The notes below the pieces were generated by a model. That model did not search any database, was not told the DNA's origin, and saw nothing but the letters and a program-made list of their open reading frames with translations. From the NCBI GenBank assembly GCA_964495685.1, contig CAZBVQ010000004.1, positions 1 to 53,151 of the forward strand: a stretch of 53,151 bases of DNA, given 5' to 3'. Positions 39,931 to 49,276 of the stretch are shown here, one piece after another. Each line of letters begins with the position of its first letter. Within the stretch, counting starts at the first letter, position 1. Position numbers and translations under genes: made by a program. The stretch is from an uncultured Candidatus Saccharibacteria bacterium (GTDB taxonomy: Bacteria > Patescibacteriota > Minisyncoccia > Phycocordibacterales > PALSA-1337).

Positions 39931-41154
39931 ATGAAACCTTCTCACCCCATCACATACATTACCCGCGATATCGAACGAGCCATCGGCACGGAGCCTAGTG
40001 ATAATTACTTCATCATCGCCAATAAGACACCTTATGCAGAGGGCATCGCCGCCACTCATCCAGACAACGTCCTACTCATCGAAAGCCCTACCATTCTCGG
40101 TACCCGTGAGCTCATAGAACATGCCACCACCAAGGCGTGGCTTGCCTCGACCTTTGCCCCTTCAGCTTTACCCTTTACCCTTGTGTTCAAAAACACCGCT
40201 CGTGTCGAAGAAGCCGCTACCAAACACGGCCTCAAACTGATCAATCCCAGTGCTGCACTCTCAGAGACCATCGAGAACAAAATGTCTCAGATCGAGTGGC
40301 TCGGCGATATGGGCAAGAAATATTTGCCGCGCCATAGTGTCATGATCGCCAAGAAGCTCACCTGGACCGGCGAACCATTCATCGTGCAATGGGCACACGG
40401 ACACACCGGTGGCGGCACACTCCTTATTTCGAACGAGACAGAGCTCCGTACCATTCAAGAGAAATTCCCCTTCCGCATGACTCGTCGTAGTGCTTATATC
40501 AAGGGCCCCTCATTCACCGTGAATGCCGTGGTCGCCGCAGACAAAATCCTTGTCGGCAATATCAGTTACCAGATCACTGGCCTCCGACCGTTCACCGACA
40601 ACCCATTCAGCACTGTCGGTAATGACTGGAGTGCGACTCACACCATGTTGACCGAGTCGGAGATCGAATACATCGAGACTATGGCCAGTGACATCGGCAA
40701 GAAGCTCAATATCAGTGGATGGCGCGGACTCTATGGCATCGATGTGATCAAGGACGTCGAGCACAACACTATATATCTGATCGAGATCAATGCACGCCAA
40801 CCTGCATCGACCAGTTTCGAATCGTCACTACAGCGCCGCAACAGAGATCAGGGCGCCGACGGCATCACCACCTTCGAGGCACATCTCTCGGCCCTTCTCG
40901 GAGAAAGTATCAGTAAACCTCTCATTCCTATCAATGACGGTGCACAAATCGTCCAGCGTGTGACCAAAGCGACAACCACCGTTGGTGACGATAAGATCAC
41001 CGCACTTCATGCGGCCGGCTATCAAACAGCGACCTATCCCAACACTGACTTGAACGAAGATCTCGTGCGTATTCAGAGTACACGAGGTATTATTGATGCA
41101 CGTGGTGAGCTCAATGAGCGTGGGCAAGATATTCTGAGCAGCATCACTAGATAA
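39931..41154 (+). CDS. ATP-grasp fold ligase of unknown specificity
   Basis: IENK, PFIVQ...GHTGGGT and GLYGIDVI...LIEINARQPAS. Confidence 0.8.
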   Translation: MKPSHPITYITRDIERAIGTEPSDNYFIIANKTPYAEGIAATHPDNVLLIESPTILGTRELIEHATTKAWLASTFAPSALPFTLVFKNTARVEEAATKHGLKLINPSAALSETIENKMSQIEWLGDMGKKYLPRHSVMIAKKLTWTGEPFIVQWAHGHTGGGTLLISNETELRTIQEKFPFRMTRRSAYIKGPSFTVNAVVAADKILVGNISYQITGLRPFTDNPFSTVGNDWSATHTMLTESEIEYIETMASDIGKKLNISGWRGLYGIDVIKDVEHNTIYLIEINARQPASTSFESSLQRRNRDQGADGITTFEAHLSALLGESISKPLIPINDGAQIVQRVTKATTTVGDDKITALHAAGYQTATYPNTDLNEDLVRIQSTRGIIDARGELNERGQDILSSITR

Positions 41155-41355: not shown

Positions 41356-42075
41356 CTAGCCTTGAGAGATGAAGCCTTGCGGGACGAGGAACGCGAACCC
41401 ACCCCCACGACTCCACCCGTCGTCGGGGTCGCCGTGGTACGCGTCGAGGTACGGCCCGCCATCGCCGGCACCGGCCGCGAGGAGCTCCGAAGCGCCGTCA
41501 ACCACGATGGGTTTGTGCATAACCACAATCCACAACAAACCCATCTGCTTGATTTCGTCGTCAGTGAACTTTTCACGAATGAGACAGGCGACTTCGGCAT
41601 TGATCTTTTTGCCGTGTTTCAGCTTCCGACGATCACCCTCGGCACGAATCTTCTTGGTGATGCGATCATTGTCCGCAAACAAGCTACCAGGTAAGACCGC
41701 GATCTTAGACGTAACTCCAGTCGTCGGTCTGAAGCTTTTGGGGTTGAGGGCTTTTTCCGCCCAGTCTCCAACTTTCTTCCCTTGTTTGGCCAGACGCAGC
41801 TTCCAATCCGGACCGGCACAACCATCGGAAGTCACCGAGAAATAGATGACCCCATCCTTGCCAACTTTCCATTTTGGTTCAATAGTGTCTGATTTGACAC
41901 GGCCCTCGCAGACCGCTCGGAATGTGTCCGGAGGCGGAAGCGTGCCAGCCTTGGCTCCAGCGGCAAGCGCTGGGAGGTACAGGTGAAACTGATTTGTCTG
42001 TTCGAGGTCGAGCCCTTGATCCTCAAGAAGTTTCAGGGTATGCATGCCCTGGGCTCGTGTTGCGTTGCTGCTCAT
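41356..42075 (-). CDS. Hypothetical protein (239 aa)
   Basis: Start re-called at MSSNATRAQ (42075) after AGGA. Globular composition, bracketed by a promoter and a terminator. Confidence 0.65.
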   Translation of the reverse strand: MSSNATRAQGMHTLKLLEDQGLDLEQTNQFHLYLPALAAGAKAGTLPPPDTFRAVCEGRVKSDTIEPKWKVGKDGVIYFSVTSDGCAGPDWKLRLAKQGKKVGDWAEKALNPKSFRPTTGVTSKIAVLPGSLFADNDRITKKIRAEGDRRKLKHGKKINAEVACLIREKFTDDEIKQMGLLWIVVMHKPIVVDGASELLAAGAGDGGPYLDAYHGDPDDGWSRGGGFAFLVPQGFISQG

Positions 42076-42266
42076 AGGTTTCCTATGTGGCACTATCTCC
42101 TGCGATAGTATTTTTTGGTGAGGATAGGCTAAACACAACATCTGTGTCGCCATAGCTTGGAAGTGCCTATTTGATTTCATTTCGAGAAATATAAGCATCT
42201 CAAAGCTATGGCGAACTATAAAGATTTTCAAGGATTCTAGAAAAAATTTTATCTCTTTCTTTATAT

Positions 42267-42367: not shown

Positions 42368-43144
42368 ATGAACACCAAAACTCTTTCCACCCGAGCACTT
42401 TCGGTCATAGATCAGTATCGCCAGTTCACTGTCGGGTCAGCGACGTGTTCGGTGCCCTATTTCAATAACAAGACCAAACGATCTCGCGGCGCTCTCCGTG
42501 TATATGTCGGCAAAGGTAGTCCAAAAGAGCTTTTTGAGGAAATCCAGTCCGTACTCGTCAAAGCCCACATAGATACATCTACCATCTCGAACGAAACGAT
42601 CAAAAAGTTACTCACTGATGAAAATATCGGCATCGATTGTTCGGGTTTTGCATACTATGTACTCAATAGCCAGAACGAAGAAATCGGCAAAGGTAAAATA
42701 GACAAACATCTTTCATTTATCAATTGTCATGGCCTAATCGGCAAAATGCGCTGCGCACTTCGACCCATCGAAAACTGTGACGTCGCCACGTTCGCACATG
42801 ATTCAAACAGTCGACTCGTCACTCTCAAAGACGTCACCCCTGGAGACATGATCACCATGTTGAACGACTCCCAAGAAAATGAACGTGACCACATTCTAGT
42901 CATCCACCAAGTCGAGTACCAGAATTTCATTCCCTACCAAATTCACTACTCTCACGCCGTCGCATACCCCGAGGATGGTATCTACGGCACCGGCATCAAA
43001 CAAGGCACCATAGAGATCCTCGACCTCAACAAACCGCTCACCGATCAGCTCTGGACCGAGAATGGCAAGACCGCCGAAGCAAACCGCATCTTCACGCGCG
43101 CCCAAAAATCAAAAACCGAAATCCGCCGTCTCAAGTGGTGGTAA
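42368..43144 (+). CDS. NlpC/P60-like (papain-fold) cysteine amidase
   Basis: GIDCSGF catalytic-Cys motif, PGD and DHILVI (His). Confidence 0.7.
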   Translation: MNTKTLSTRALSVIDQYRQFTVGSATCSVPYFNNKTKRSRGALRVYVGKGSPKELFEEIQSVLVKAHIDTSTISNETIKKLLTDENIGIDCSGFAYYVLNSQNEEIGKGKIDKHLSFINCHGLIGKMRCALRPIENCDVATFAHDSNSRLVTLKDVTPGDMITMLNDSQENERDHILVIHQVEYQNFIPYQIHYSHAVAYPEDGIYGTGIKQGTIEILDLNKPLTDQLWTENGKTAEANRIFTRAQKSKTEIRRLKWW

Positions 43145-43145
43145 A

Positions 43146-43311
43146 TGCACCAGAACAACAGTGTGCACAAGGAAGACGAGGACTGTCTGAGTCGCCGAAC
43201 TTGGCTAGGCCTTTTGGCACGGTCAGATTTTTGCCCCGTGTGACAAAAGGCCTTGCAAGTTCGTGCGGCGAGTTCCGCAGTCTTCCTTGTGCACACTGTT
43301 GTTCTGGTGCA
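43146..43311. repeat. Hairpin element copy 1: 102-nt conserved core inside a perfect 32-bp inverted repeat
   Basis: Arms 43146-43177 and 43280-43311 are exact reverse complements. Core 43178-43279 matches 47776-47877 at 99/102. Confidence 0.95.
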
Positions 43312-43355: not shown

Positions 43356-44486
43356 ATGATAACTATCCTTGAGGGCACCGCCGATCTCTCATATATCATC
43401 TCATTCGCCCTGATTGGCGCTATTGGTGCATACCTATTGGCACCCCTCCTCATTCGTACCCTTTTCAAGCTCAATGTCATCAAAGGTGCAAAGACAGAGC
43501 TCGTCAACCTCGGCTCTCACGCCTACAAGGCCACTACTCCCGTCATGGGCGGACTCCTCGTCATCATCGTCGTCGCACTCGTCACCTATATATTCAACTG
43601 GAATCGCTCATTCACCTATGTCCCTATCGGTGTCATGATCATATCTGCCGCCCTCGGTGCCATCGACGACCTGCTCAATATTTATGGCTCAGAACGTCGC
43701 TCCCGCAAACTCGGTCACATCATGAATTTGATCCGTGTTCACAGCGACTGGAAGATGCGCCTGTGGTACATCATCACCTTGCCCTGGAGTGCCTTCAAGC
43801 GTCTCTCGGTCTGGTTCGGATCACGCACTAGTCGCGGCGTCTTCGTTCACGAGAAACTCATCCTCCAATTCATCGCCGGCGCCATCGCTGCCTGGTGGAT
43901 TTACACCAAGCTAGGACCTGCCTGGCACTTCATTTATTTCCCCTTCGTACCTGCTGGCCTCGATATAGGATGGATCATTATTCCGGTGATTATTTTCATG
44001 GTCATGTTCACCGCCAACGCCGTCAATATCGCCGACGGCATGGATGGTCTGGCTGGCGGCATGCTCACCATCACTTTCACTGCACTCACCATCCTCTCAT
44101 GGATCAACGGATTCGGTGAGATCGCCATCCTGAATGCTACGACCGCTGGCGCACTGGTCGCCTATACCTATTTCAATATCAAACCAGCTCGCTTCATGAT
44201 GGGCGATGTCGGCAGTCTCGGTCTCGGTGCCTTGCTAGCCGTGAATGCTATGGCTATCGGCGAACTCATTCCTCTTCTTTTCATCGGCTTCATGTTCTAC
44301 GTCGAAGCTCTTTCAGTCATCATCCAGGTCGTATCGCGATACACCCTCGGTCGCAAACTATTCCGCATGGCACCACTGCATCACCATTTCGAACTCAAGG
44401 GCTGGACCGAGGAGAAGACCGTGATGCGTTTCTGGGTCGTCCATTTCTTGTTCGTCATATTTGGATTCTGGCTAGCGTTGCACTAG
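43356..44486 (+). CDS. mraY: Phospho-N-acetylmuramoyl-pentapeptide transferase (MraY family) with loop insertion
   Basis: TPVMGG, GAIDD, ANAVNIADGMDGL, PARFMMGDVGS and FRMAPLHHHFELKGW. Confidence 0.88.
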   Translation: MITILEGTADLSYIISFALIGAIGAYLLAPLLIRTLFKLNVIKGAKTELVNLGSHAYKATTPVMGGLLVIIVVALVTYIFNWNRSFTYVPIGVMIISAALGAIDDLLNIYGSERRSRKLGHIMNLIRVHSDWKMRLWYIITLPWSAFKRLSVWFGSRTSRGVFVHEKLILQFIAGAIAAWWIYTKLGPAWHFIYFPFVPAGLDIGWIIIPVIIFMVMFTANAVNIADGMDGLAGGMLTITFTALTILSWINGFGEIAILNATTAGALVAYTYFNIKPARFMMGDVGSLGLGALLAVNAMAIGELIPLLFIGFMFYVEALSVIIQVVSRYTLGRKLFRMAPLHHHFELKGWTEEKTVMRFWVVHFLFVIFGFWLALH

Positions 44487-44490
44487 CATC

Positions 44491-45153
44491 ATGCCTTATC
44501 TTTCCTGGAACGAACAAACGATCACTGATTTCTCGGACAAGCACATCTCCGAAATGTATGGTCATGGCTACGTCTTCACCCGTATCGCCCGAGGGGTGAT
44601 GCACCAAACACGTTCCGTGCGCATTGACCTATCGAAGTTCGAGCTCACCAGCGAGAATCGTCGCATTCTCAAGAAGACCGATGAGCTGAGACTCATCGAC
44701 CGACCGACACCCCTTCCAGACTATGACTGGTCACTCGGCAAGCTGGCCAAGGATTTCTATGAGACCAAATTCGGTGCCGGCACCATGAGCGCGGCCAAGG
44801 TCAAAGAGATGCTCACCGATGCTACGGCCAGCAACTTCAATACACTTCTGCAATATACCAACGCCTCCGACAAAGCTGTCGGCTACGCGATCTGCCATTC
44901 AAATAAATATATGCTGCATTATTCATACCCATTCTACGACCTTGATGCAGCACCCAAAGACGCAGGCCTCGGCATGATGATTCGCGCCATTGTCTTTGCG
45001 CGAGAATCTGGCATGAAACATATCTACCTCGGTTCACTCCAACGTCCTTCTGACACCTACAAATTACAATTCCATGGCCTCGAATGGTTCGACGGGACAG
45101 CATGGTCACATGATCTCCAGAAGGTCCGTGAAATTCTCGCGACAACCAAATAA
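44491..45153 (+). CDS. Arginyl-tRNA--protein transferase (ATE/Bpt)-like aminoacyl-tRNA-dependent transferase
   Basis: RI.L..F......RRILKK (ATE_N-like) and Y.FYD....LG...I..AR..G.K.IYLG.....YK..F (ATE_C-like). Confidence 0.7.
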   Translation: MPYLSWNEQTITDFSDKHISEMYGHGYVFTRIARGVMHQTRSVRIDLSKFELTSENRRILKKTDELRLIDRPTPLPDYDWSLGKLAKDFYETKFGAGTMSAAKVKEMLTDATASNFNTLLQYTNASDKAVGYAICHSNKYMLHYSYPFYDLDAAPKDAGLGMMIRAIVFARESGMKHIYLGSLQRPSDTYKLQFHGLEWFDGTAWSHDLQKVREILATTK

Positions 45154-45201: not shown

Positions 45202-46596
45202 ATGAATCAATTACCCCGACACGTTCACGTCATCGGCATCTGTGGCGTTGCTACCAGCGCTCTAGCTATTGCTTTCCACAAGAAGGGCGTCAAAGTCACA
45301 GGGAGTGATAAAGGCTTTTATCCACCTGTTTCAACCTATCTCAAGAACGCAGGGATACCCTATTATGCCGGCTGGCATCCTGAGAACATTACTGCGGGTG
45401 AAAAACCTGATTTCATTATGATTGGTGGTGTTGGTACCAGCCCTTCAAACCCAGAGTATCTTTACGCTCACGAAAATAACATCCCTGTCTATCCATATGC
45501 CGAGGTGTTGGAAAAATATTTTATTAAAAAAAATTCAGTAGTTGTCGCGGGTACCTGGGGAAAAACAACAACTTCTTCCCTGCTTTCATTCATTATGATC
45601 CGAGCGGGACTGAATCCAAGCTACTTTACCGGCGGACTTTCGTTGTCACATGATACTGGCGCACTCACCGACACAGATTGGAGCATCGTCGAAGGAGATG
45701 AGTACCAAGTCTCTATCAGCGATCGTAGACCGAAGTTCGTGTACTACGCCCCGACCCACTTACTACTGACCTCAGTCTCATGGGACCACGCCGACCTGTA
45801 TCCTACGGAGAAAGCATACATCGATGAATTCACCAAGCTCGTACAACATATCCCCTCAAACGGACGTGTTGTAGCATGTATTGATGACGGTGGTGTGCAG
45901 CACGTTATACAGAATAGAGCAGTAATCAGTTACGGACAGTCTGCATCTGCCGACTACCGATATGGATCAGTCGCCACAACAAAAAATGGTCTCGACCTGA
46001 CTATTACTCACGCAGGCAAGACATTCAAAATACACTCACCGATGCTAGGCAGATTCAACGCGGAAAATATTGCAGGCGCTTTTGCCATGGCCTGCGAGAT
46101 TGGCGTCACACCAGAGATTACTACACAAGCGATCGCTGATTTCAAAGGAATAAGACGACGTTTTGAAAAAAGACTCGATGGTGAAAAAACGGTACTTGAT
46201 TGTCATGCACCAACAGCAGAAAAGGCAGCCTCAGTTCTGGAGGCCATTCGTGAGGTCTATCCAAAACGAGTTATTGCGGTGTATGAACCAAATATCGGTG
46301 GCCGTCAGCGCGCCTCGGCTCATGCCTATAACAATGCCTTCAAGGACGCAGATATAGTCATCATTCCTCACCTCACAAAAATCAAAGTGGCAGAAGATGC
46401 CTCTGAGCAACCTATGGAAGCTGATGAATTGGCAAAGACAATCGCTCGGACACACAAATATGTCCGTTCGATTGAAATCGACCAAAACGTAGTCGAATTC
46501 CTATCATCAGAGACCCGCCCAGGCGACGTGATCGTCTTCCTCGGATCCCATGGATTCAGGGGTATGATCGAAGAGGCAGTCAAATCACTATCCTAA
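45202..46596 (+). CDS. Mur ligase of the Mpl/MurC type
   Basis: IGICG...GSD...YPP (Mpl-like N-terminus), AGTWGKTTT, EGDEY, WDHAD and FKGIRRRFE. Confidence 0.85.
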   Translation: MNQLPRHVHVIGICGVATSALAIAFHKKGVKVTGSDKGFYPPVSTYLKNAGIPYYAGWHPENITAGEKPDFIMIGGVGTSPSNPEYLYAHENNIPVYPYAEVLEKYFIKKNSVVVAGTWGKTTTSSLLSFIMIRAGLNPSYFTGGLSLSHDTGALTDTDWSIVEGDEYQVSISDRRPKFVYYAPTHLLLTSVSWDHADLYPTEKAYIDEFTKLVQHIPSNGRVVACIDDGGVQHVIQNRAVISYGQSASADYRYGSVATTKNGLDLTITHAGKTFKIHSPMLGRFNAENIAGAFAMACEIGVTPEITTQAIADFKGIRRRFEKRLDGEKTVLDCHAPTAEKAASVLEAIREVYPKRVIAVYEPNIGGRQRASAHAYNNAFKDADIVIIPHLTKIKVAEDASEQPMEADELAKTIARTHKYVRSIEIDQNVVEFLSSETRPGDVIVFLGSHGFRGMIEEAVKSLS

Positions 46597-46599
46597 CCT

Positions 46600-46773
46600 C
46601 TACTTGCCCTCGTCAACGATCTCAGTAGAGACCTTGCCATCAGCGGCAATATTCTTGACCGCGAGAGTCATACCGCAGTGATTACATTCGATGACCATAC
46701 CTGCTGCCAGATTGGGATATCGAGAGAGGTCGATGGTATTTTTGCATTCTGGACACATACAAAGCATATTCAT
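46600..46773 (-). CDS. LysW-like zinc-ribbon small carrier protein (57 aa)
   Basis: CPEC...CNHC and a C-terminal EIVDEGK. Start re-called at MNMLCMC, 9 nt after CATAAT. Confidence 0.7.
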   Translation of the reverse strand: MNMLCMCPECKNTIDLSRYPNLAAGMVIECNHCGMTLAVKNIAADGKVSTEIVDEGK

Positions 46774-46874
46774 AGTTTTGAGATTATGATGAAACATGAG
46801 TGGTAGATAACAAACGGCCGCAGAGCGTCCGTGCTTCACATGGTACCCGAAAAAAGGTAGTATGACAACATTCT

Positions 46875-47750
46875 ATGACAACTCCCCTCGAACACTACCC
46901 TGAATTGGCGTCAGCTATTGGTGTAGCCGACCTCTATTTCAAGCGCGAAGATCTGCACCCTTACGGGTCTCACAAGGGCCGCTCCATTCCGGTCATGATA
47001 GATACCTACTACGACACAGGCGACCGAGAATTCGCCATCTCTTCGTCAGGTAATGCGGCATTGGCGGCGGCAATACACGTACAGAGCAAACCTGACTGCA
47101 ACCTCAATATATTCGTAGGTAACCACGTCTCCCCCACCAAGCTCGAACGTATCGAGAAGGTCGCTGCGACCGCCAATGGCCGAATCCGCATCCTCACCAA
47201 AGAACGCCCCCTCCAGGCACTTACCCAAGCGATAAGTGAGGGCAAACGAAGTCTCCGCCAGTCGACAGATGACGTCGCTCTCGTCGGCTATCAGTCATTG
47301 GCCGAAGAATTGGCCACAGCAGCACAATCAGACAAAATAGCCGCCCTATTCATCGGCACATCTTCAGGAACAACAGCCCAAGCCCTAGCGAGCTATTTTT
47401 TGAACAAAAAAATCCCTATTCAAGTGCACATAGTCCAGACGTCCTCATGCCATCCACTTGCCCAAGAATTCAATCCGTATGATGGCCCTGATGAACGTTC
47501 CCGCGCTGACGCTATTGTCGATATCTCTGCCCAACGGAAGTCGACACTCATCCCACTCATCGAGAAAACAGGTGGTTCCGGTTGGATTGCCACCAACGAA
47601 GATATTGATGCCGCCCGAGAACTGGTACGCGAACACACTCGATTAGATATTTCGACCAATAGCGCACTTTCGATAGTCGGCGCCATGAAATCGACCTACA
47701 TCGATTATGAAATTGATGGCGCAGTCGTCTGTATGATTTGTGGAGAGTAG
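46875..47750 (+). CDS. PLP-dependent fold-type II enzyme (threonine synthase/cysteine synthase-like)
   Basis: YFKREDLHPYGSHKGR (PLP Lys), SSSGNAA and GTSSGTT phosphate loop. Confidence 0.85.
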   Translation: MTTPLEHYPELASAIGVADLYFKREDLHPYGSHKGRSIPVMIDTYYDTGDREFAISSSGNAALAAAIHVQSKPDCNLNIFVGNHVSPTKLERIEKVAATANGRIRILTKERPLQALTQAISEGKRSLRQSTDDVALVGYQSLAEELATAAQSDKIAALFIGTSSGTTAQALASYFLNKKIPIQVHIVQTSSCHPLAQEFNPYDGPDERSRADAIVDISAQRKSTLIPLIEKTGGSGWIATNEDIDAARELVREHTRLDISTNSALSIVGAMKSTYIDYEIDGAVVCMICGE

Positions 47751-47908
47751 CTGGCGGACATTTCATCTGAGTGTCGAGGACTGTTTGAGTCGCCGAACTT
47801 GGCTAGGCCTTTTGGCACGGTCAGATTTTTGCCCCGTGTGACAAAAGGCCTTGCAAGTTCGTGTGACGAGTTCCGCAGACACTCAGATGAAATGTCCGCC
47901 AGCTACTC
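47745..47908. repeat. Hairpin element copy 2: same 102-nt core inside a different perfect 31-bp inverted repeat
   Basis: Arms 47745-47775 and 47878-47908 are exact reverse complements. The left arm includes the last codon and TAG of the upstream gene. Confidence 0.95.
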
Positions 47909-47914
47909 AGACAC

Positions 47915-49276
47915 CTACAACCCCCTCACTGCCCGCACGAACTTGTCTCCACGTTCCCACTTGGAACCCTCGATACCGCCCGCATCGAATCCTGGACTGA
48001 ACAAGACACGATCGCCTTTTTGGGCACACTCGGAGGCTGTCCGCACCGCTTCTTCAATAGATGGAACTGTCCGGACATCCACCTGCTCGATAGTGTGCAA
48101 CAACGTGCGTTGGCGCATGGTACCACTACCAGGAATAGTGATAATCGTGTGCACATATTGTGGCAACTGACTATACAGTGCCTGATATTCATACCCCCCA
48201 TCGACACCACCGAAAATCAAGATCATATTCCTGCCCTGCGACAACGCCTCCACACCGGCACGTGCGGACTCGGGCGTCATGGAAGCCGTGTCATTATAAT
48301 ATTCAACGCCCTTGACCTTCTTGACCAATTCGAGACGACCCTTGAGCGCCTTCCAATCGACGAGCACATGTCGCGCCATATCCTCATCCACTTTGAACAA
48401 GGAAGCTGCCTGAAGTGCGAGGGCCGCATTGAGTCGATCATGGATACCTCGCCCTTCGAAACCCCATTCATCTGGTACACGCATCGCCTTGGTACGGAAC
48501 ATCTTGGCACGCTGTTGGATCGGCGCCTGGCGCACCGCATCGATAATCTCGTCAGTAGCAATAAGGAAATTGTTGTATGTCTGATAGGCCAATACCTGGA
48601 AGGGTGATTCCATGAGTCCACGTACTGTCGGCATATTCGTGAATATGGCAACATGCGGACTAATCCTCATGGCGTAGAGATCGGGAATAAGTTCATCGAC
48701 AATACGCATAAGCACAATATCACCACTGGTGATCTTCTTGAGACGGACGAGTGTACCATCAGCTGATTCCGGGTCAATCACATGCACATTCTGCGCCTCA
48801 TAGGTATGACAGGCCTTCTCAAGCATCGGAGCAAGAATAGACATGACCGTTGATTTGCCGCACACACCCATGACGCCGATGAGCGTCACCGGTGGAGCCA
48901 GCTTGAAAAAGAGCGTCTCTGGGTATTCGACAGATATAGGCTTCCGAGCCATATCCAATCGTCCTTGTTCCTGTTGTGTGTTGTGCGCATATATATCTCT
49001 CAAGAAGGAAGAATCTCGTGGATACTCTCGTGAGAGGATAATCAGATCCATATCGAGCAAATCTTCAGCTGGAATAGACCCGCAAATATAATTGGCGAGG
49101 CCGATCGATCGCAAGAATACGAGATGATGTTTGAGGCGGGCCTCACTTTTTAGGTCATATATAGAGACCCAGGCACCTGCCTTGATGAGATATTTGACAT
49201 CTTCGACCATCTCACCATGCGGGCCCAGGCCGATAACGGCCACTCGTTTGCCCTTGAAATAGTCGCGCAATGCCAT
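47915..49276 (-). CDS. murD: MurD-like Mur ligase, divergent
   Basis: Start re-called at MALRDYFKGKRVAVIGLG (49276). P-loop GVCGKST, GRLE, YYNDT, LIFGG and GDRVLFSPG. Confidence 0.7.
   Translation of the reverse strand: MALRDYFKGKRVAVIGLGPHGEMVEDVKYLIKAGAWVSIYDLKSEARLKHHLVFLRSIGLANYICGSIPAEDLLDMDLIILSREYPRDSSFLRDIYAHNTQQEQGRLDMARKPISVEYPETLFFKLAPPVTLIGVMGVCGKSTVMSILAPMLEKACHTYEAQNVHVIDPESADGTLVRLKKITSGDIVLMRIVDELIPDLYAMRISPHVAIFTNMPTVRGLMESPFQVLAYQTYNNFLIATDEIIDAVRQAPIQQRAKMFRTKAMRVPDEWGFEGRGIHDRLNAALALQAASLFKVDEDMARHVLVDWKALKGRLELVKKVKGVEYYNDTASMTPESARAGVEALSQGRNMILIFGGVDGGYEYQALYSQLPQYVHTIITIPGSGTMRQRTLLHTIEQVDVRTVPSIEEAVRTASECAQKGDRVLFSPGFDAGGIEGSKWERGDKFVRAVRGL

Follow-up and report, generated by a model that had tools for sequence, protein, structure and literature searches.

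We found that a small zinc-ribbon protein encoded in the window, the 53,151-nucleotide stretch of DNA analyzed here, belongs to a module of Patescibacteria that consists of this protein, a threonine-synthase-like fold-type II PLP enzyme, an ATP-grasp_3 ligase, and an NlpC/P60-like Cys-His-His enzyme. The genomic context of this module is a gene cluster for peptidoglycan (PG) precursor synthesis. Judged by its sequence, the zinc-ribbon protein (here called the carrier) is a LysW homolog that stands outside the LysW/AmCP functional system. We tentatively propose, with confidence just short of even, that its invariant C-terminal lysine is the working end of a carrier and that the module supplies D-glutamate (D-Glu) for PG. 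A full-text search of the literature found no description of this carrier module.

The core coding sequence of the carrier is located at positions 46600 to 46773 on the minus strand and encodes 57 amino acids plus a stop codon (MNMLCMCPECKNTIDLSRYPNLAAGMVIECNHCGMTLAVKNIAADGKVSTEIVDEGK, then the stop), with a tail that reads ...IVDEGK. An alternative in-frame ATG at position 46797 would give a 65-amino-acid protein (beginning MFHHNLKT) and a gene spanning positions 46600 to 46797. The internal methionine is absent from many homologs, so the upstream start is needed in those homologs. We found carrier genes in 80 species-representative genomes, and the homologs grouped into 266 clusters when the identity threshold was 90%; a threshold of 50% gave 67 representatives. 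When codons were compared among homologs, there were 20 synonymous and 31 nonsynonymous differences in codons 1 to 8, compared to 338 and 136, respectively, in the core. These counts leave the N-terminal extension in doubt and show clear purifying selection on the core, and the carrier open reading frame (ORF) is a real gene. As originally predicted, it is carried on the strand opposite to the PLP-enzyme (PALP) gene (positions 46875 to 47750, plus strand) and is divergent from it, with a carrier-PALP spacer of 77 to 101 bp (positions 46798 to 46874). The carrier had also been credited with its own promoter. Promoter-like hexamers are present on both strands of the spacer, at positions 46868 to 46840 on the minus strand (TTGTCA-17-TACCAT) and 46835 to 46863 on the plus strand, which agrees with this claim, but each is a weak, pattern-level match at 9 of 12 consensus positions.

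Both knuckles of the zinc ribbon are retained in the carrier. The first, CPEC (positions 46744 to 46755, minus strand), has a Cys, a Glu, and a second Cys that are invariant in our two alignments, A1 and A2, and it pairs with the CPEC of canonical LysW in hhalign. The second, CNHC followed by Gly (positions 46675 to 46686, minus strand), falls in E-C-x-x-C-G columns that are likewise invariant in A1 and A2. The carrier scored 26.9 bits against the Pfam family Zn_ribbon_LysW (PF21344; gathering score, 27), and its lysine-ended relatives scored 35 to 51 bits. Comparison with canonical LysW by hhalign gave a probability of 97.1% and an E value of 4.8e-11, and when the AF2 model of the carrier (pLDDT, 77) was compared with the PDB by Foldseek, ranks 1 to 6 were all LysW, with TM scores of 0.65 to 0.86. 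A sequence-only PDB search with the carrier family profile matched LysW at an E value of 0.46, on par with RPB12. The Pfam score, the hhalign probability, and the Foldseek ranking bear out the earlier description of the protein as LysW-like, and the translation confirms that it keeps the double CxxC ribbon and ends in DEGK instead of EDWGE.

In LysW, the gamma-carboxyl of the terminal Glu of EDWGE bears the cargo, which is bound via its amino group. No EDWGE-type tail was found in the carrier or in its PALP-linked relatives, all of which end in lysine. Tails of the EDWGE or EDWGQ type occurred only in separate matches away from PALP, which Pfam places as LysW-like; in one control genome (G046), an EDWGQ-ending match is followed by two RimK plus LysX_preATP_grasp genes and not by PALP. 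A search for RimK/LysX-type ligases (PF08443) had no match in the carrier's own genome, which is 98% complete, and had matches in 13 of 14 control genomes. In addition, LysZ, LysY, LysJ, and LysK were not found in the conserved neighborhood of the carrier. The lack of RimK/LysX in the genome and of an EDWGE tail rules out a canonical LysW pathway and membership in the LysW/AmCP system.

The carrier and the LysW/ArgW AmCPs of Thermus, Sulfolobus, and Thermococcus, whose enzymes are LysX/ArgX, LysZ, LysY, LysJ, and LysK, share the zinc-ribbon fold, the CPEC...CxxCG pattern, and a beta-hairpin. Both are small acidic proteins with a conserved, in the carrier putatively functional, end at the extreme C terminus, and the genes of both are accompanied by those for a hydrolase and an ATP-grasp ligase, which fits a logic of loading, modification, and release. 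In contrast to LysW, the carrier ends in lysine and not in EDWGE, and its tail is ~6 residues shorter by hhalign. The ligase is of the ATP-grasp_3 type for the carrier and the LysX/RimK type for LysW, modification would fall to a fold-type II PLP enzyme instead of a kinase, a reductase, and an aminotransferase, and a papain-like Cys enzyme takes the place of the M20 metallopeptidase LysK as the hydrolase. The context also differs, with PG synthesis for the carrier, a setting absent from the original prediction, and Lys/Arg biosynthesis for LysW. The polarity is likely reversed as well, such that an amine of the carrier would hold a carboxyl of the cargo.

The terminal lysine, which we propose as the cargo residue, is encoded by an AAG codon at positions 46603 to 46605 (minus strand) and is invariant in A1 and A2. 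The tail reads (I/V)V(D/N)(E/A)GK at 77 of 79 species loci, and the more distant relatives encoded next to the PLP gene all end in lysine as well, so that the C terminus, the point at which the original prediction was to be checked across homologs, is conserved and not variable. Across ~200 relatives, the tail variants include DEGK, EEEK, YVQK, MIEK, LVEK, and NLGK, the terminal lysine is the sole invariant residue, and position -3 is occupied by D, E, Y, M, N, or L. A single invariant terminal residue among variable neighbors is typical of a chemical attachment point and suggests one in these sequences. The conserved lysine end and the lack of EDWGE mean that any cargo must attach otherwise than in LysW, as had been predicted. 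Three sites had been offered for this attachment, the Lys epsilon-amine, the C-terminal carboxyl, and the Glu at position -3; the last is unlikely because its position is not conserved, and the invariant lysine is favored. Since position -3 varies and only the lysine is invariant, the putative cargo most likely sits on the terminal lysine itself. Beyond the last strand, the carrier tail has 3 to 5 residues according to the AF2 model and hhalign, compared to ~9 or more in LysW. A tail of the modeled length may not extend far enough for deep active sites, which counts against a carrier function.

The carrier gene has the same neighbors in at least 10 families of Patescibacteria, namely the other three genes of the module and those for MraY and an atypical MurD. 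PALP lies no more than 400 bp from the carrier gene at 76 of 79 species loci and adjoins it at 19 to 20 of 25 loci from other families. Of 20 carrier-positive genomes, 19 also have the ATP-grasp gene, and the order PALP-ATP-grasp-NlpC-MraY is collinear in distant clades with EEEK tails. In a set of 201 genomes, 37 were ATP-grasp positive. Their gene contexts led us to reject the counting of all 37 as module positive, since 12 have lone paralogs without PALP, NlpC, or MraY; these 12, which include all of the MurI-positive genomes among the 37, were dropped from the module set. For the module-positive count, one genome (G071) was kept unclassified and another (G011) is a weak partial match.

In the window, the gene for MraY (phospho-MurNAc-pentapeptide translocase; positions 43356 to 44486, plus strand; Pfam Glycos_transf_4) adjoins the NlpC-like gene, an arrangement that is conserved. 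Positions 44491 to 45153 (plus strand) encode a 220-amino-acid ATE_C/Fem-like, aminoacyl-tRNA transferase-like protein (Pfam ATE_C, 3.8e-6). NCBIfam arginyltransferase models matched this protein at 1e-14, below their cutoffs, and FemAB genes hold the place of its gene in other clades. A 291-amino-acid ORF at positions 41356 to 42231 was rejected as part of the module; it has no family matches and is missing from homologous clusters.

The near-constant neighbor of the carrier gene encodes the threonine-synthase-like PLP enzyme, a protein of 291 amino acids (Pfam PALP, 1.8e-31). In a PDB search, the family profile of this enzyme matched threonine synthases best (6e-35), followed by Ser dehydratases and Asp/Ser racemases, and a Foldseek comparison of its AF2 model (pLDDT, 96.6) concurred with a threonine-synthase-like fold. 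The enzyme family keeps the PLP lysine, Lys34 (48 of 49 sequences), along with the SSSGN substrate loop. When the enzyme was aligned to the threonine synthases of B. subtilis and Aquifex, NSVNPYR in the latter corresponded to Q-S-T-D-D-x-A. We take the phosphate-binding Arg of the threonine-synthase motif N-S-V-N-P-x-R to be Arg160 in Thermus numbering. Of the 49 PLP enzymes, 41 have Ala at this position (Ala135 here), 5 have Ser, and 3 have Gly, and two conserved residues, Asp132 and Asp133, are located near the lost Arg. Function as a threonine synthase proper was rejected because this phosphate-binding Arg is missing. Ser58, which directly precedes the G-N of the substrate loop, presumably occupies the position of Ser84 in serine racemase. 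Ser84 is the re-face base of that enzyme (PMC6424897). The ranking of the profile matches, with threonine synthases nearest and Asp/Ser racemases scoring lower, would argue against a racemase role for the PLP enzyme. Threonine synthases are not racemases.

The ATP-grasp ligase (407 amino acids; positions 39931 to 41154, plus strand; Pfam ATP-grasp_3, 9e-9) is encoded directly after PALP in distant clades. Its Pfam match was to ATP-grasp_3 only, with none to the RimK/LysX type. In searches of the PDB, the single sequence had no matches, and the profile had weak ones to PurK and an unnamed ATP-grasp protein (~2e-4), to BesA (0.02), and, at a nonsignificant level, to TTL; these searches found no significant similarity to any characterized ligase, including PylC and Aslfm. 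The gene for the NlpC/P60-like cysteine enzyme (258 amino acids; positions 42368 to 43144, plus strand) follows the ATP-grasp gene in all clades examined. The protein is predicted to be cytoplasmic, with no signal peptide found in its sequence, and its Pfam match to NLPC_P60 is weak (E value, 0.004). All 25 homologs share Cys91 in the motif GIDCSG, His175, and His196, and a PDB search with the profile matched LytE at an E value of 0.5, over the Cys motif alone. The assignment to NlpC/P60 is accordingly a putative one, based on the Cys motif and the two His residues. Cleavage of gamma-D-Glu-diamino-acid bonds is the hallmark of the NlpC/P60 family, and its canonical substrates have D-Glu on the alpha-amine of the diamino acid, not on the epsilon-amine.

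We found two unusual Mur ligases close to the carrier gene. One is a MurC/Mpl-like protein of 464 amino acids with three Mur ligase domains (positions 45202 to 46596, plus strand), whose stop codon lies 4 nucleotides from that of the convergent carrier gene; it scored 264 bits against murC and 207 bits against mpl, both below the cutoffs. The other is an atypical MurD-like ligase (positions 47915 to 49276, minus strand) with Pfam matches to Mur_ligase_C and, weakly, to MurD-like_N. It scored 110 bits against TIGR01087 (cutoff, 212), mainly over its C-terminal half (model positions 239 to 440). All of the module-positive genomes have a low-scoring MurD, with either 230 to 259 bits or at most 110; its gene often adjoins the carrier gene, and the match begins at model position 31 to 94. 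The ~116 best MurD matches among the 201 genomes all come from module-negative genomes. The carrier's own genome has four Mur ligases, including the MurD-like protein with a P-loop. Ddl, Alr, MurE, and MurF are present, and MurE is canonical at 333 bits, above the cutoff. The presence of canonical Ddl and Alr led us to reject the possibility that PALP and the ATP-grasp ligase replace alanine racemase and D-Ala-D-Ala ligase.

Profile searches found neither MurI nor a class-IV aminotransferase in this 98%-complete genome. Across the 201 genomes, MurI was found in 0 of 24 module-positive and 84 of 177 other genomes (Fisher P = 8.5e-7, by a test that ignores phylogeny in a sample with only ~10 independent families). 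A clear Aminotran_4 match was seen in just 2 of the 24 module-positive genomes. There are also 93 module-negative genomes without MurI, some of which have a canonical MurD (family f18), so the absence of MurI is not specific to the module. Within another family (f48), one genome has canonical MurD and MurI and no module, and three have an atypical MurD and the module and no MurI.

From these findings we infer a cargo, an attachment chemistry, and an order of steps. The ATP-grasp ligase would activate the side-chain carboxyl of L-glutamate, which would be ligated to the epsilon-amine of the carrier lysine, a loading polarity opposite to that of LysW, whose terminal Glu holds the cargo's amino group. 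Because a Glu tethered in this way keeps a free alpha-amine and alpha-carboxylate, the PLP enzyme could epimerize it at C-alpha while it is bound to the carrier. The NlpC/P60-like amidase would be specific for the D-form and release it from the carrier, either before or after the MurD-like ligase joins D-Glu to UDP-MurNAc-L-Ala; in a variant of this scheme, the atypical MurD would use the tethered D-Glu, and the amidase would then free UDP-MurNAc-L-Ala-D-Glu. The net effect would be a one-way, ATP-driven supply of D-Glu for stem position 2 in lineages without glutamate racemase. Racemases normally work without a carrier, and the rationale for tethering glutamate to one is a matter of argument. 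That the protein is a "carboxyl-group carrier protein" of Patescibacteria, a mirror image of LysW, and that the ATP-grasp, PLP, and NlpC enzymes make up an ATP-driven, one-way replacement for glutamate racemase, we regard as possible but doubtful.

To our knowledge, protein-tethered amino acid metabolism is known mainly from LysW/AmCP, always with the amino group of the cargo on the terminal Glu. If the proposal is true, the module would represent a second chemical logic, with a tethered carboxyl and an amine that stays available to the PLP enzyme. The module would also close a gap in textbook PG synthesis, as many ultra-small bacteria have MurD-like ligases and no recognizable D-glutamate source, and organisms that cannot yet be cultured by themselves would depend on it as an essential, lineage-specific step.

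Parts of the proposed scheme resemble known systems. As general background, the CysO-CysM pair of Mycobacterium and related pairs of a small protein and a fold-type II PLP enzyme are similar to the scheme in that a small carrier protein inserts its C terminus into the active site of its partner and a dedicated peptidase then frees the amino acid product. However, CysO is a ThiS-like beta-grasp protein that donates sulfur from a GG-thiocarboxylate, whereas the carrier is a zinc ribbon with a lysine end and no sulfur chemistry is implied. PylC (pyrrolysine) and Aslfm (D-aspartate ligase of the Enterococcus bridge) are ATP-grasp enzymes that acylate the N-epsilon of Lys via an amino-acid acyl-phosphate. 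They are precedents for the proposed loading of the carrier, and Aslfm acts in PG synthesis; their acceptors are free Lys or UDP-MurNAc-pentapeptide, while that of the proposed module would be a protein C terminus. MurI and the MurD2/MurL system of Xanthomonas also provide D-Glu at stem position 2, and MurD2/MurL is like the module in that MurI is missing and the system that replaces it is accompanied by an atypical MurD. The MurI racemase relies on two Cys residues and no cofactor, and MurL epimerizes UDP-MurNAc-L-Ala-L-Glu without PLP; unlike the module, neither has a protein carrier, an ATP-grasp ligase, or a PLP enzyme. In the PEARL/pearlin systems (e.g., TglA, for 3-thiaglutamate), a metabolite is built on the C terminus of a ribosomal scaffold and clipped off, and the scaffold is reused, as proposed for the carrier. 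Pearlins differ from it in their LanB-like loading from aminoacyl-tRNA onto the alpha-carboxylate, their lack of a zinc ribbon, and their secondary-metabolite products.

The Mur ligases of the module-positive genomes could also point to assembly of a peptide on the carrier, by extension of a tethered Glu or, in the manner of RimK or TTL, of the C-terminal carboxylate, in replacement of the classical MurC and MurD steps. For example, the ATE_C/Fem-like protein might add L-Ala, the NlpC/P60-like enzyme might free a di- or tripeptide, and the Mpl-like ligase might join it to UDP-MurNAc. The MurC-like protein does score below the murC cutoff and resemble Mpl, module-positive genomes have an atypical MurD or none that could be detected, and the transferase is conserved in the cluster, although Fem/ATE-like genes are common in PG clusters, where they serve interpeptide bridges. 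RimK and TTL are ATP-grasp enzymes that extend protein C termini, and TTL was among the nonsignificant PDB matches, but an alpha-carboxylate alone would not demand an invariable terminal lysine. In addition, the four Mur ligases of the carrier's own genome, with the P-loop of the MurD-like protein, leave no step obviously missing, and the PLP enzyme would have no clear job on an N-acylated residue. We consider this explanation unlikely.

It is likewise improbable that the protein bears no covalent cargo and instead serves the PLP enzyme, or the MurD-like/MraY machinery, as a structural or regulatory subunit, with its C-terminal Lys and carboxylate docked noncovalently in a partner site, for example by mimicking a stem-peptide Lys or an amino acid substrate. 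Its tight divergent adjacency to PALP would suit a stoichiometric partner equally well, and a swinging arm would be expected to be longer than the 3 to 5 residues that follow the last beta-strand. Against this stand the homology to the LysW family, for which covalent carriage is the only role known to us, the strict co-occurrence with a ligase of the ATP-grasp type and a Cys amidase, the two enzymes that a carrier would be expected to need for loading and release, and the one invariant terminal residue amid variable ones that typifies an attachment point.

The lysine epsilon-amine might instead serve as a nucleophile, such that the PLP enzyme, by beta- or gamma-replacement with O-phosphoserine, O-acetylserine, or a homoserine ester as the donor, builds a lysinoalanine-like diamino-dicarboxylic acid on the terminal lysine; the NlpC/P60-like enzyme would clip off this product for stem position 3, and the ATP-grasp ligase would re-add Lys, as in pearlin systems. 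Beta-replacement is common among fold-type II PLP enzymes, this one is derived from threonine synthase, and SbnA, which uses an amine nucleophile and O-phosphoserine, was among the structural matches. A gene-encoded, invariant terminal lysine with nothing beyond it would also fit a substrate residue, and Asp132 and Asp133 at the phosphate site could bind its cationic side chain. However, the module covaries with MurI and MurD, which act at position 2, and not with MurE, which is canonical; the PLP enzyme lacks the Arg for phospho-ester substrates; and production of O-phosphoserine or O-phosphohomoserine is not known for these reduced genomes. We judge this chemistry to be quite improbable.

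Finally, the view that the ORF is spurious or encodes a generic zinc ribbon without a specific role, an outcome against which the prediction had been set, would agree with the labels RPC12/RpoP or L37AE that JGI annotation gives to homologs and with a sequence-only PDB search that ranks LysW no better than RPB12 (E values, ~0.3 to 0.5), but it is effectively refuted by strong purifying selection on the core, a C terminus fixed across hundreds of homologs, synteny that is kept across families and locks the carrier gene to its enzyme partners, and profile and fold matches specific to LysW.

Translation of the open frame at 46600-46773 on the minus strand gives the product MNMLCMCPECKNTIDLSRYPNLAAGMVIECNHCGMTLAVKNIAADGKVSTEIVDEGK, in which CPEC and CNHC form a pair of CxxC knuckles and D-E-G-K is the C terminus, as stated in the original prediction. 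We also found an alternative in-frame ATG at 46797 that would add MFHHNLKT to the N terminus of this carrier; many carrier homologs have no internal Met, so the longer form is required in those homologs. Against 14 homologs, carrier codons 1 to 8 show 20 synonymous versus 31 nonsynonymous differences, and the core shows 338 versus 136. Thus, the carrier core is clearly under purifying selection, and the N-terminal extension from 46797 is uncertain. The carrier gene is convergent with a MurC-like gene ending at 46596 and, as proposed earlier, divergent from the gene for a PALP-family PLP enzyme; the promoter of its own that had been assigned to it comes down to weak promoter-like hexamers on both strands of the spacer.

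Simple sequence searches linked the carrier weakly to LysW, with 26.9 bits for Pfam Zn_ribbon_LysW (gathering score, 27), scores far under the cut-offs of the NCBIfam LysW models, and a family-profile search of PDB sequences in which LysW (E = 0.46) did not outscore RPB12. An hhalign comparison of the carrier-family profile with three EDWG(E/Q)-tailed hits from Patescibacteria gave a probability of 97.1% (E = 4.8e-11, 45 columns), and distant lysine-ended relatives scored over the Pfam threshold, at 35 to 51 bits. The six top PDB fold matches of the AlphaFold2 model of the carrier (pLDDT, 77) were all LysW (3WWN_B, 3WWL, 3VPB_E, 5EIO_C, and 5K2M_F/E; TM, 0.65 to 0.86; rmsd, 1.8 to 3.3 Å), with lower-ranked matches at a probability of <0.5. 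Together, the profile alignment, the scores of the distant relatives, and the fold matches show that the carrier is a LysW homolog, the identity originally suggested for it. The block common to both families in the hhalign alignment stops at ...EIVD, after which the carrier family has 3 residues (EGK) versus 8 to 9 (EEEEDWGE) in LysW.

The tail T(E/D)IVDEGK is nearly invariant in the 120 closest clusters, and 77 of 79 species-representative loci end in (I/V)V(D/N)(E/A)GK, the other two resembling frame errors. Among 1.84 billion representatives, searched exhaustively with the profile, were 67 relatives that form a continuum from ...IVDEGK to ...(I/L/V)(I/V)EEEK. Searching 201 Patescibacteria genomes in six frames, with contexts inspected, added the tails DYLYVQK, DYLMIEK, DYLMIQK, DYLLVEK, PITNLGK, IILEEK, LINEEK, and ETVEEEK. 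The terminal Lys is the sole constant tail residue of this lysine-ended family. Six residues (D, E, Y, M, N, and L) occur at position -3, which makes the Glu there an unlikely alternative attachment site. Canonical LysW-type tails (...EEEEDWGE and ...AEAEDWGQ) were also among the six-frame matches; none of them adjoins a PALP gene in these genomes, and one is followed by two RimK plus LysX_preATP_grasp genes. This is a useful internal control, in which Glu-ended carriers pair with LysX-type ligases and Lys-ended carriers pair with a different gene set. Some larger Patescibacteria genomes have such EDWGE- or EDWGQ-tailed matches (loci L030 on G046:C63, L037 in G192, and L038 in G071), and the two LysX/ArgX-type genes after the LysW-like gene in G046 hint at a genuine AmCP Lys/Arg pathway in a phylum generally regarded as lacking amino acid biosynthesis.

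Although homologous to LysW/AmCP proteins, the carrier lacks both the EDWGE terminus and the LysX-type loader of the LysW system. With these two defining features missing, it is not to be filed as LysW; the original observation is confirmed, and the reading given to it holds in part and in a sharper form. The best description is that of a LysW sister family, distinct in both its working end and its set of enzymes. It would represent a variant of protein-carrier amino acid metabolism with a proposed mechanism, and full-text literature searches returned no published description of the carrier or of the module that it forms with its partner enzymes.

This module lies in a peptidoglycan-precursor cluster encoding an ATP-grasp_3 ligase (39931-41154), an NlpC/P60-like protein (42368-43144), MraY (43356-44486), a 220-aa ATE_C/Fem-like aminoacyl-tRNA transferase-like (ATE_C/Bpt-like) protein (44491-45153, plus strand), a MurC/Mpl-like ligase (45202-46596, plus strand), the carrier, the PALP-family PLP enzyme (46875-47750, plus strand), and a MurD-like ligase (47915-49276). 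The gene order is retained in close relatives. In distant EEEK-type relatives (about 30 to 40% identity to the window protein), the carrier gene is divergent from a collinear PALP-ATPgrasp-NlpC-like-MraY block, and this synteny is decisive. Of 79 species loci, 76 have a PALP gene ≤400 bp from the carrier, and the two genes adjoin in 19 to 20 of 25 loci of other families. Of 20 carrier-positive genomes, 19 also encode a member of the ATP-grasp family, and three overlooked carriers were recovered from the contexts of ATP-grasp-positive, carrier-negative genomes. Overall, the module occurs in 24 of the 201 sampled genomes, in about ten families. Another 12 ATP-grasp-positive, carrier-negative genomes (G008, G035, G060, G084, G013, G040, G110, G117, G130, G149, G167, and G056) have lone paralogs that match the module ATP-grasp profile at 1e-25 to 1e-63, with no PALP, NlpC-like, MraY, or carrier gene nearby (loci L045-L061).

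The genome that contains the window (834 kb, 98% complete) encodes Ddl, alanine racemase, MurE over the cut-off, MurF slightly under it, and a MurD-like ligase. Our search of it found no Asp_Glu_race family protein, class-IV aminotransferase, or RimK-type ligase, so that no recognized D-glutamate source was found despite the MurD-like ligase. MurI is present in 84 of the 201 genomes and in 0 of the 24 module-positive ones (Fisher P = 8.5e-7, uncorrected for phylogeny), and only 2 of these 24 have a clear class-IV aminotransferase. In one module-positive genome, a class-IV aminotransferase of the D-amino-acid or branched-chain type (G070:C1:173984-174634) lies ~4 kb from the module ATP-grasp. 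A third, independent pattern is seen in murD scores: the ~116 best equivalog matches (260 to 424 bits, full length) belong without exception to module-negative genomes, and module-positive genomes have 230 to 259 bits with a match start at model position 31 to 94, ≤110 bits, or no match. The atypical MurD gene is often immediately beside the carrier. Family f48 contains both combinations: canonical MurD (376 bits) and MurI without the module in one genome, and the module and atypical MurD (about 256 bits) without MurI in three. Thus, the module covaries with two genes of stem-peptide position 2, in few independent lineages. MurI is likewise missing from 93 module-negative genomes, including family f18 with canonical MurD, so other D-Glu routes must exist.

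The PLP enzyme is of fold-type II, with short bacterial threonine synthases nearest (profile E = 6e-35), followed by serine dehydratases and aspartate and serine racemases (1e-23 to 1e-14); the fold ranking of its model (pLDDT, 96.6) agrees. Lys34, the Schiff-base residue, and a substrate loop of sequence SSSGN are retained, and the threonine-synthase segment N-S-V-N-P-x-R is Q-S-T-D-D-x-A. This Arg, the substrate-phosphate binder in the Thermus threonine synthase structure, is Ala, Ser, or Gly in 49 of 49 sequences, with two conserved Asp alongside. Its replacement rules out a threonine synthase and makes a phospho-ester substrate unlikely. Ser58, immediately ahead of G-N in the loop, presumably occupies the position of serine racemase Ser84; a Ser is likewise found there in cysteine synthases, which makes the feature permissive only. 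Serine racemase requires its re-face base, Ser84, for racemization (PMC6424897). The module ATP-grasp has no significant match to any characterized ligase. The 258-aa NlpC/P60-like protein has an invariant GIDCSG Cys and two invariant His, no signal peptide, and weak whole-family NlpC/P60 scores, and is predicted to be a cytoplasmic papain-like enzyme of the NlpC/P60 type.

We propose that carrier polarity is opposite to that of LysW. The ATP-grasp would load the carrier by bonding the Lys epsilon-amine to a carboxyl of the cargo, in the most plausible case the L-Glu gamma-carboxyl; such a ligation has precedent in PylC and the D-aspartate ligase of enterococcal peptidoglycan. After loading, the cargo alpha-amine would stay free, as a PLP enzyme needs it to be; tethering in the LysW manner would block it. 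The PLP enzyme could then epimerize C-alpha. The family of the NlpC/P60-like amidase characteristically cleaves gamma-D-Glu-diamino-acid bonds, and this amidase could free D-Glu, or UDP-MurNAc-L-Ala-D-Glu if the atypical MurD uses the tethered residue beforehand. Because loading would be driven by ATP and release would be D-specific, the conversion would run in one direction. This specific scheme is tentative and less likely than not; the broader reading, that a Lys-ended protein carries cargo covalently for the synthesis of peptidoglycan precursors, is somewhat more likely than not, and the two combined, as our best explanation, have slightly under even confidence.

One unlikely alternative is that the carrier serves as a scaffold on which the ATE_C/Fem-like transferase and Mpl-like ligase assemble a peptide. 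Equally unlikely is a non-covalent subunit or regulator. A PLP-dependent replacement that alkylates the Lys epsilon-amine and so yields a lysinoalanine-like diamino acid would use the terminal Lys and the adjoining PLP enzyme, with phospho-ester substrates disfavored, and is a doubtful reading. A generic ribbon, which the RPB12 match might suggest, is highly improbable beside the LysW alignment and fold matches.

Several other features of the cluster were noted. The ATE_C/Bpt-like gene starts 5 nt past mraY, in a slot held by FemAB genes in other Patescibacteria clades, which suggests that a different family fills a Fem-like bridge-building role at 44491-45153. The MurC-like ligase scores 264 bits versus a murC equivalog cut-off of 335, with an Mpl likeness of 207 bits, and may have a non-standard amino acid or peptide substrate. 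Between the ATP-grasp and NlpC/P60-like genes, which abut in the homologous clusters of relatives, a 291-aa minus-strand ORF (41356-42231) that has no match in Pfam or NCBIfam and is not in those clusters is probably a lineage-specific insertion. Finally, the MraY-to-carrier-PALP stretch is flanked by a repeat pair (43146-43311 and 47745-47908) with a 104-nt core, 97% identical between copies; each core lies inside a perfect 31- to 32-bp inverted repeat whose arms are unlike between copies, and the copies give rise to look-alike spurious ORFs (ARPFGTVRFLPRVTKGLASSC...).
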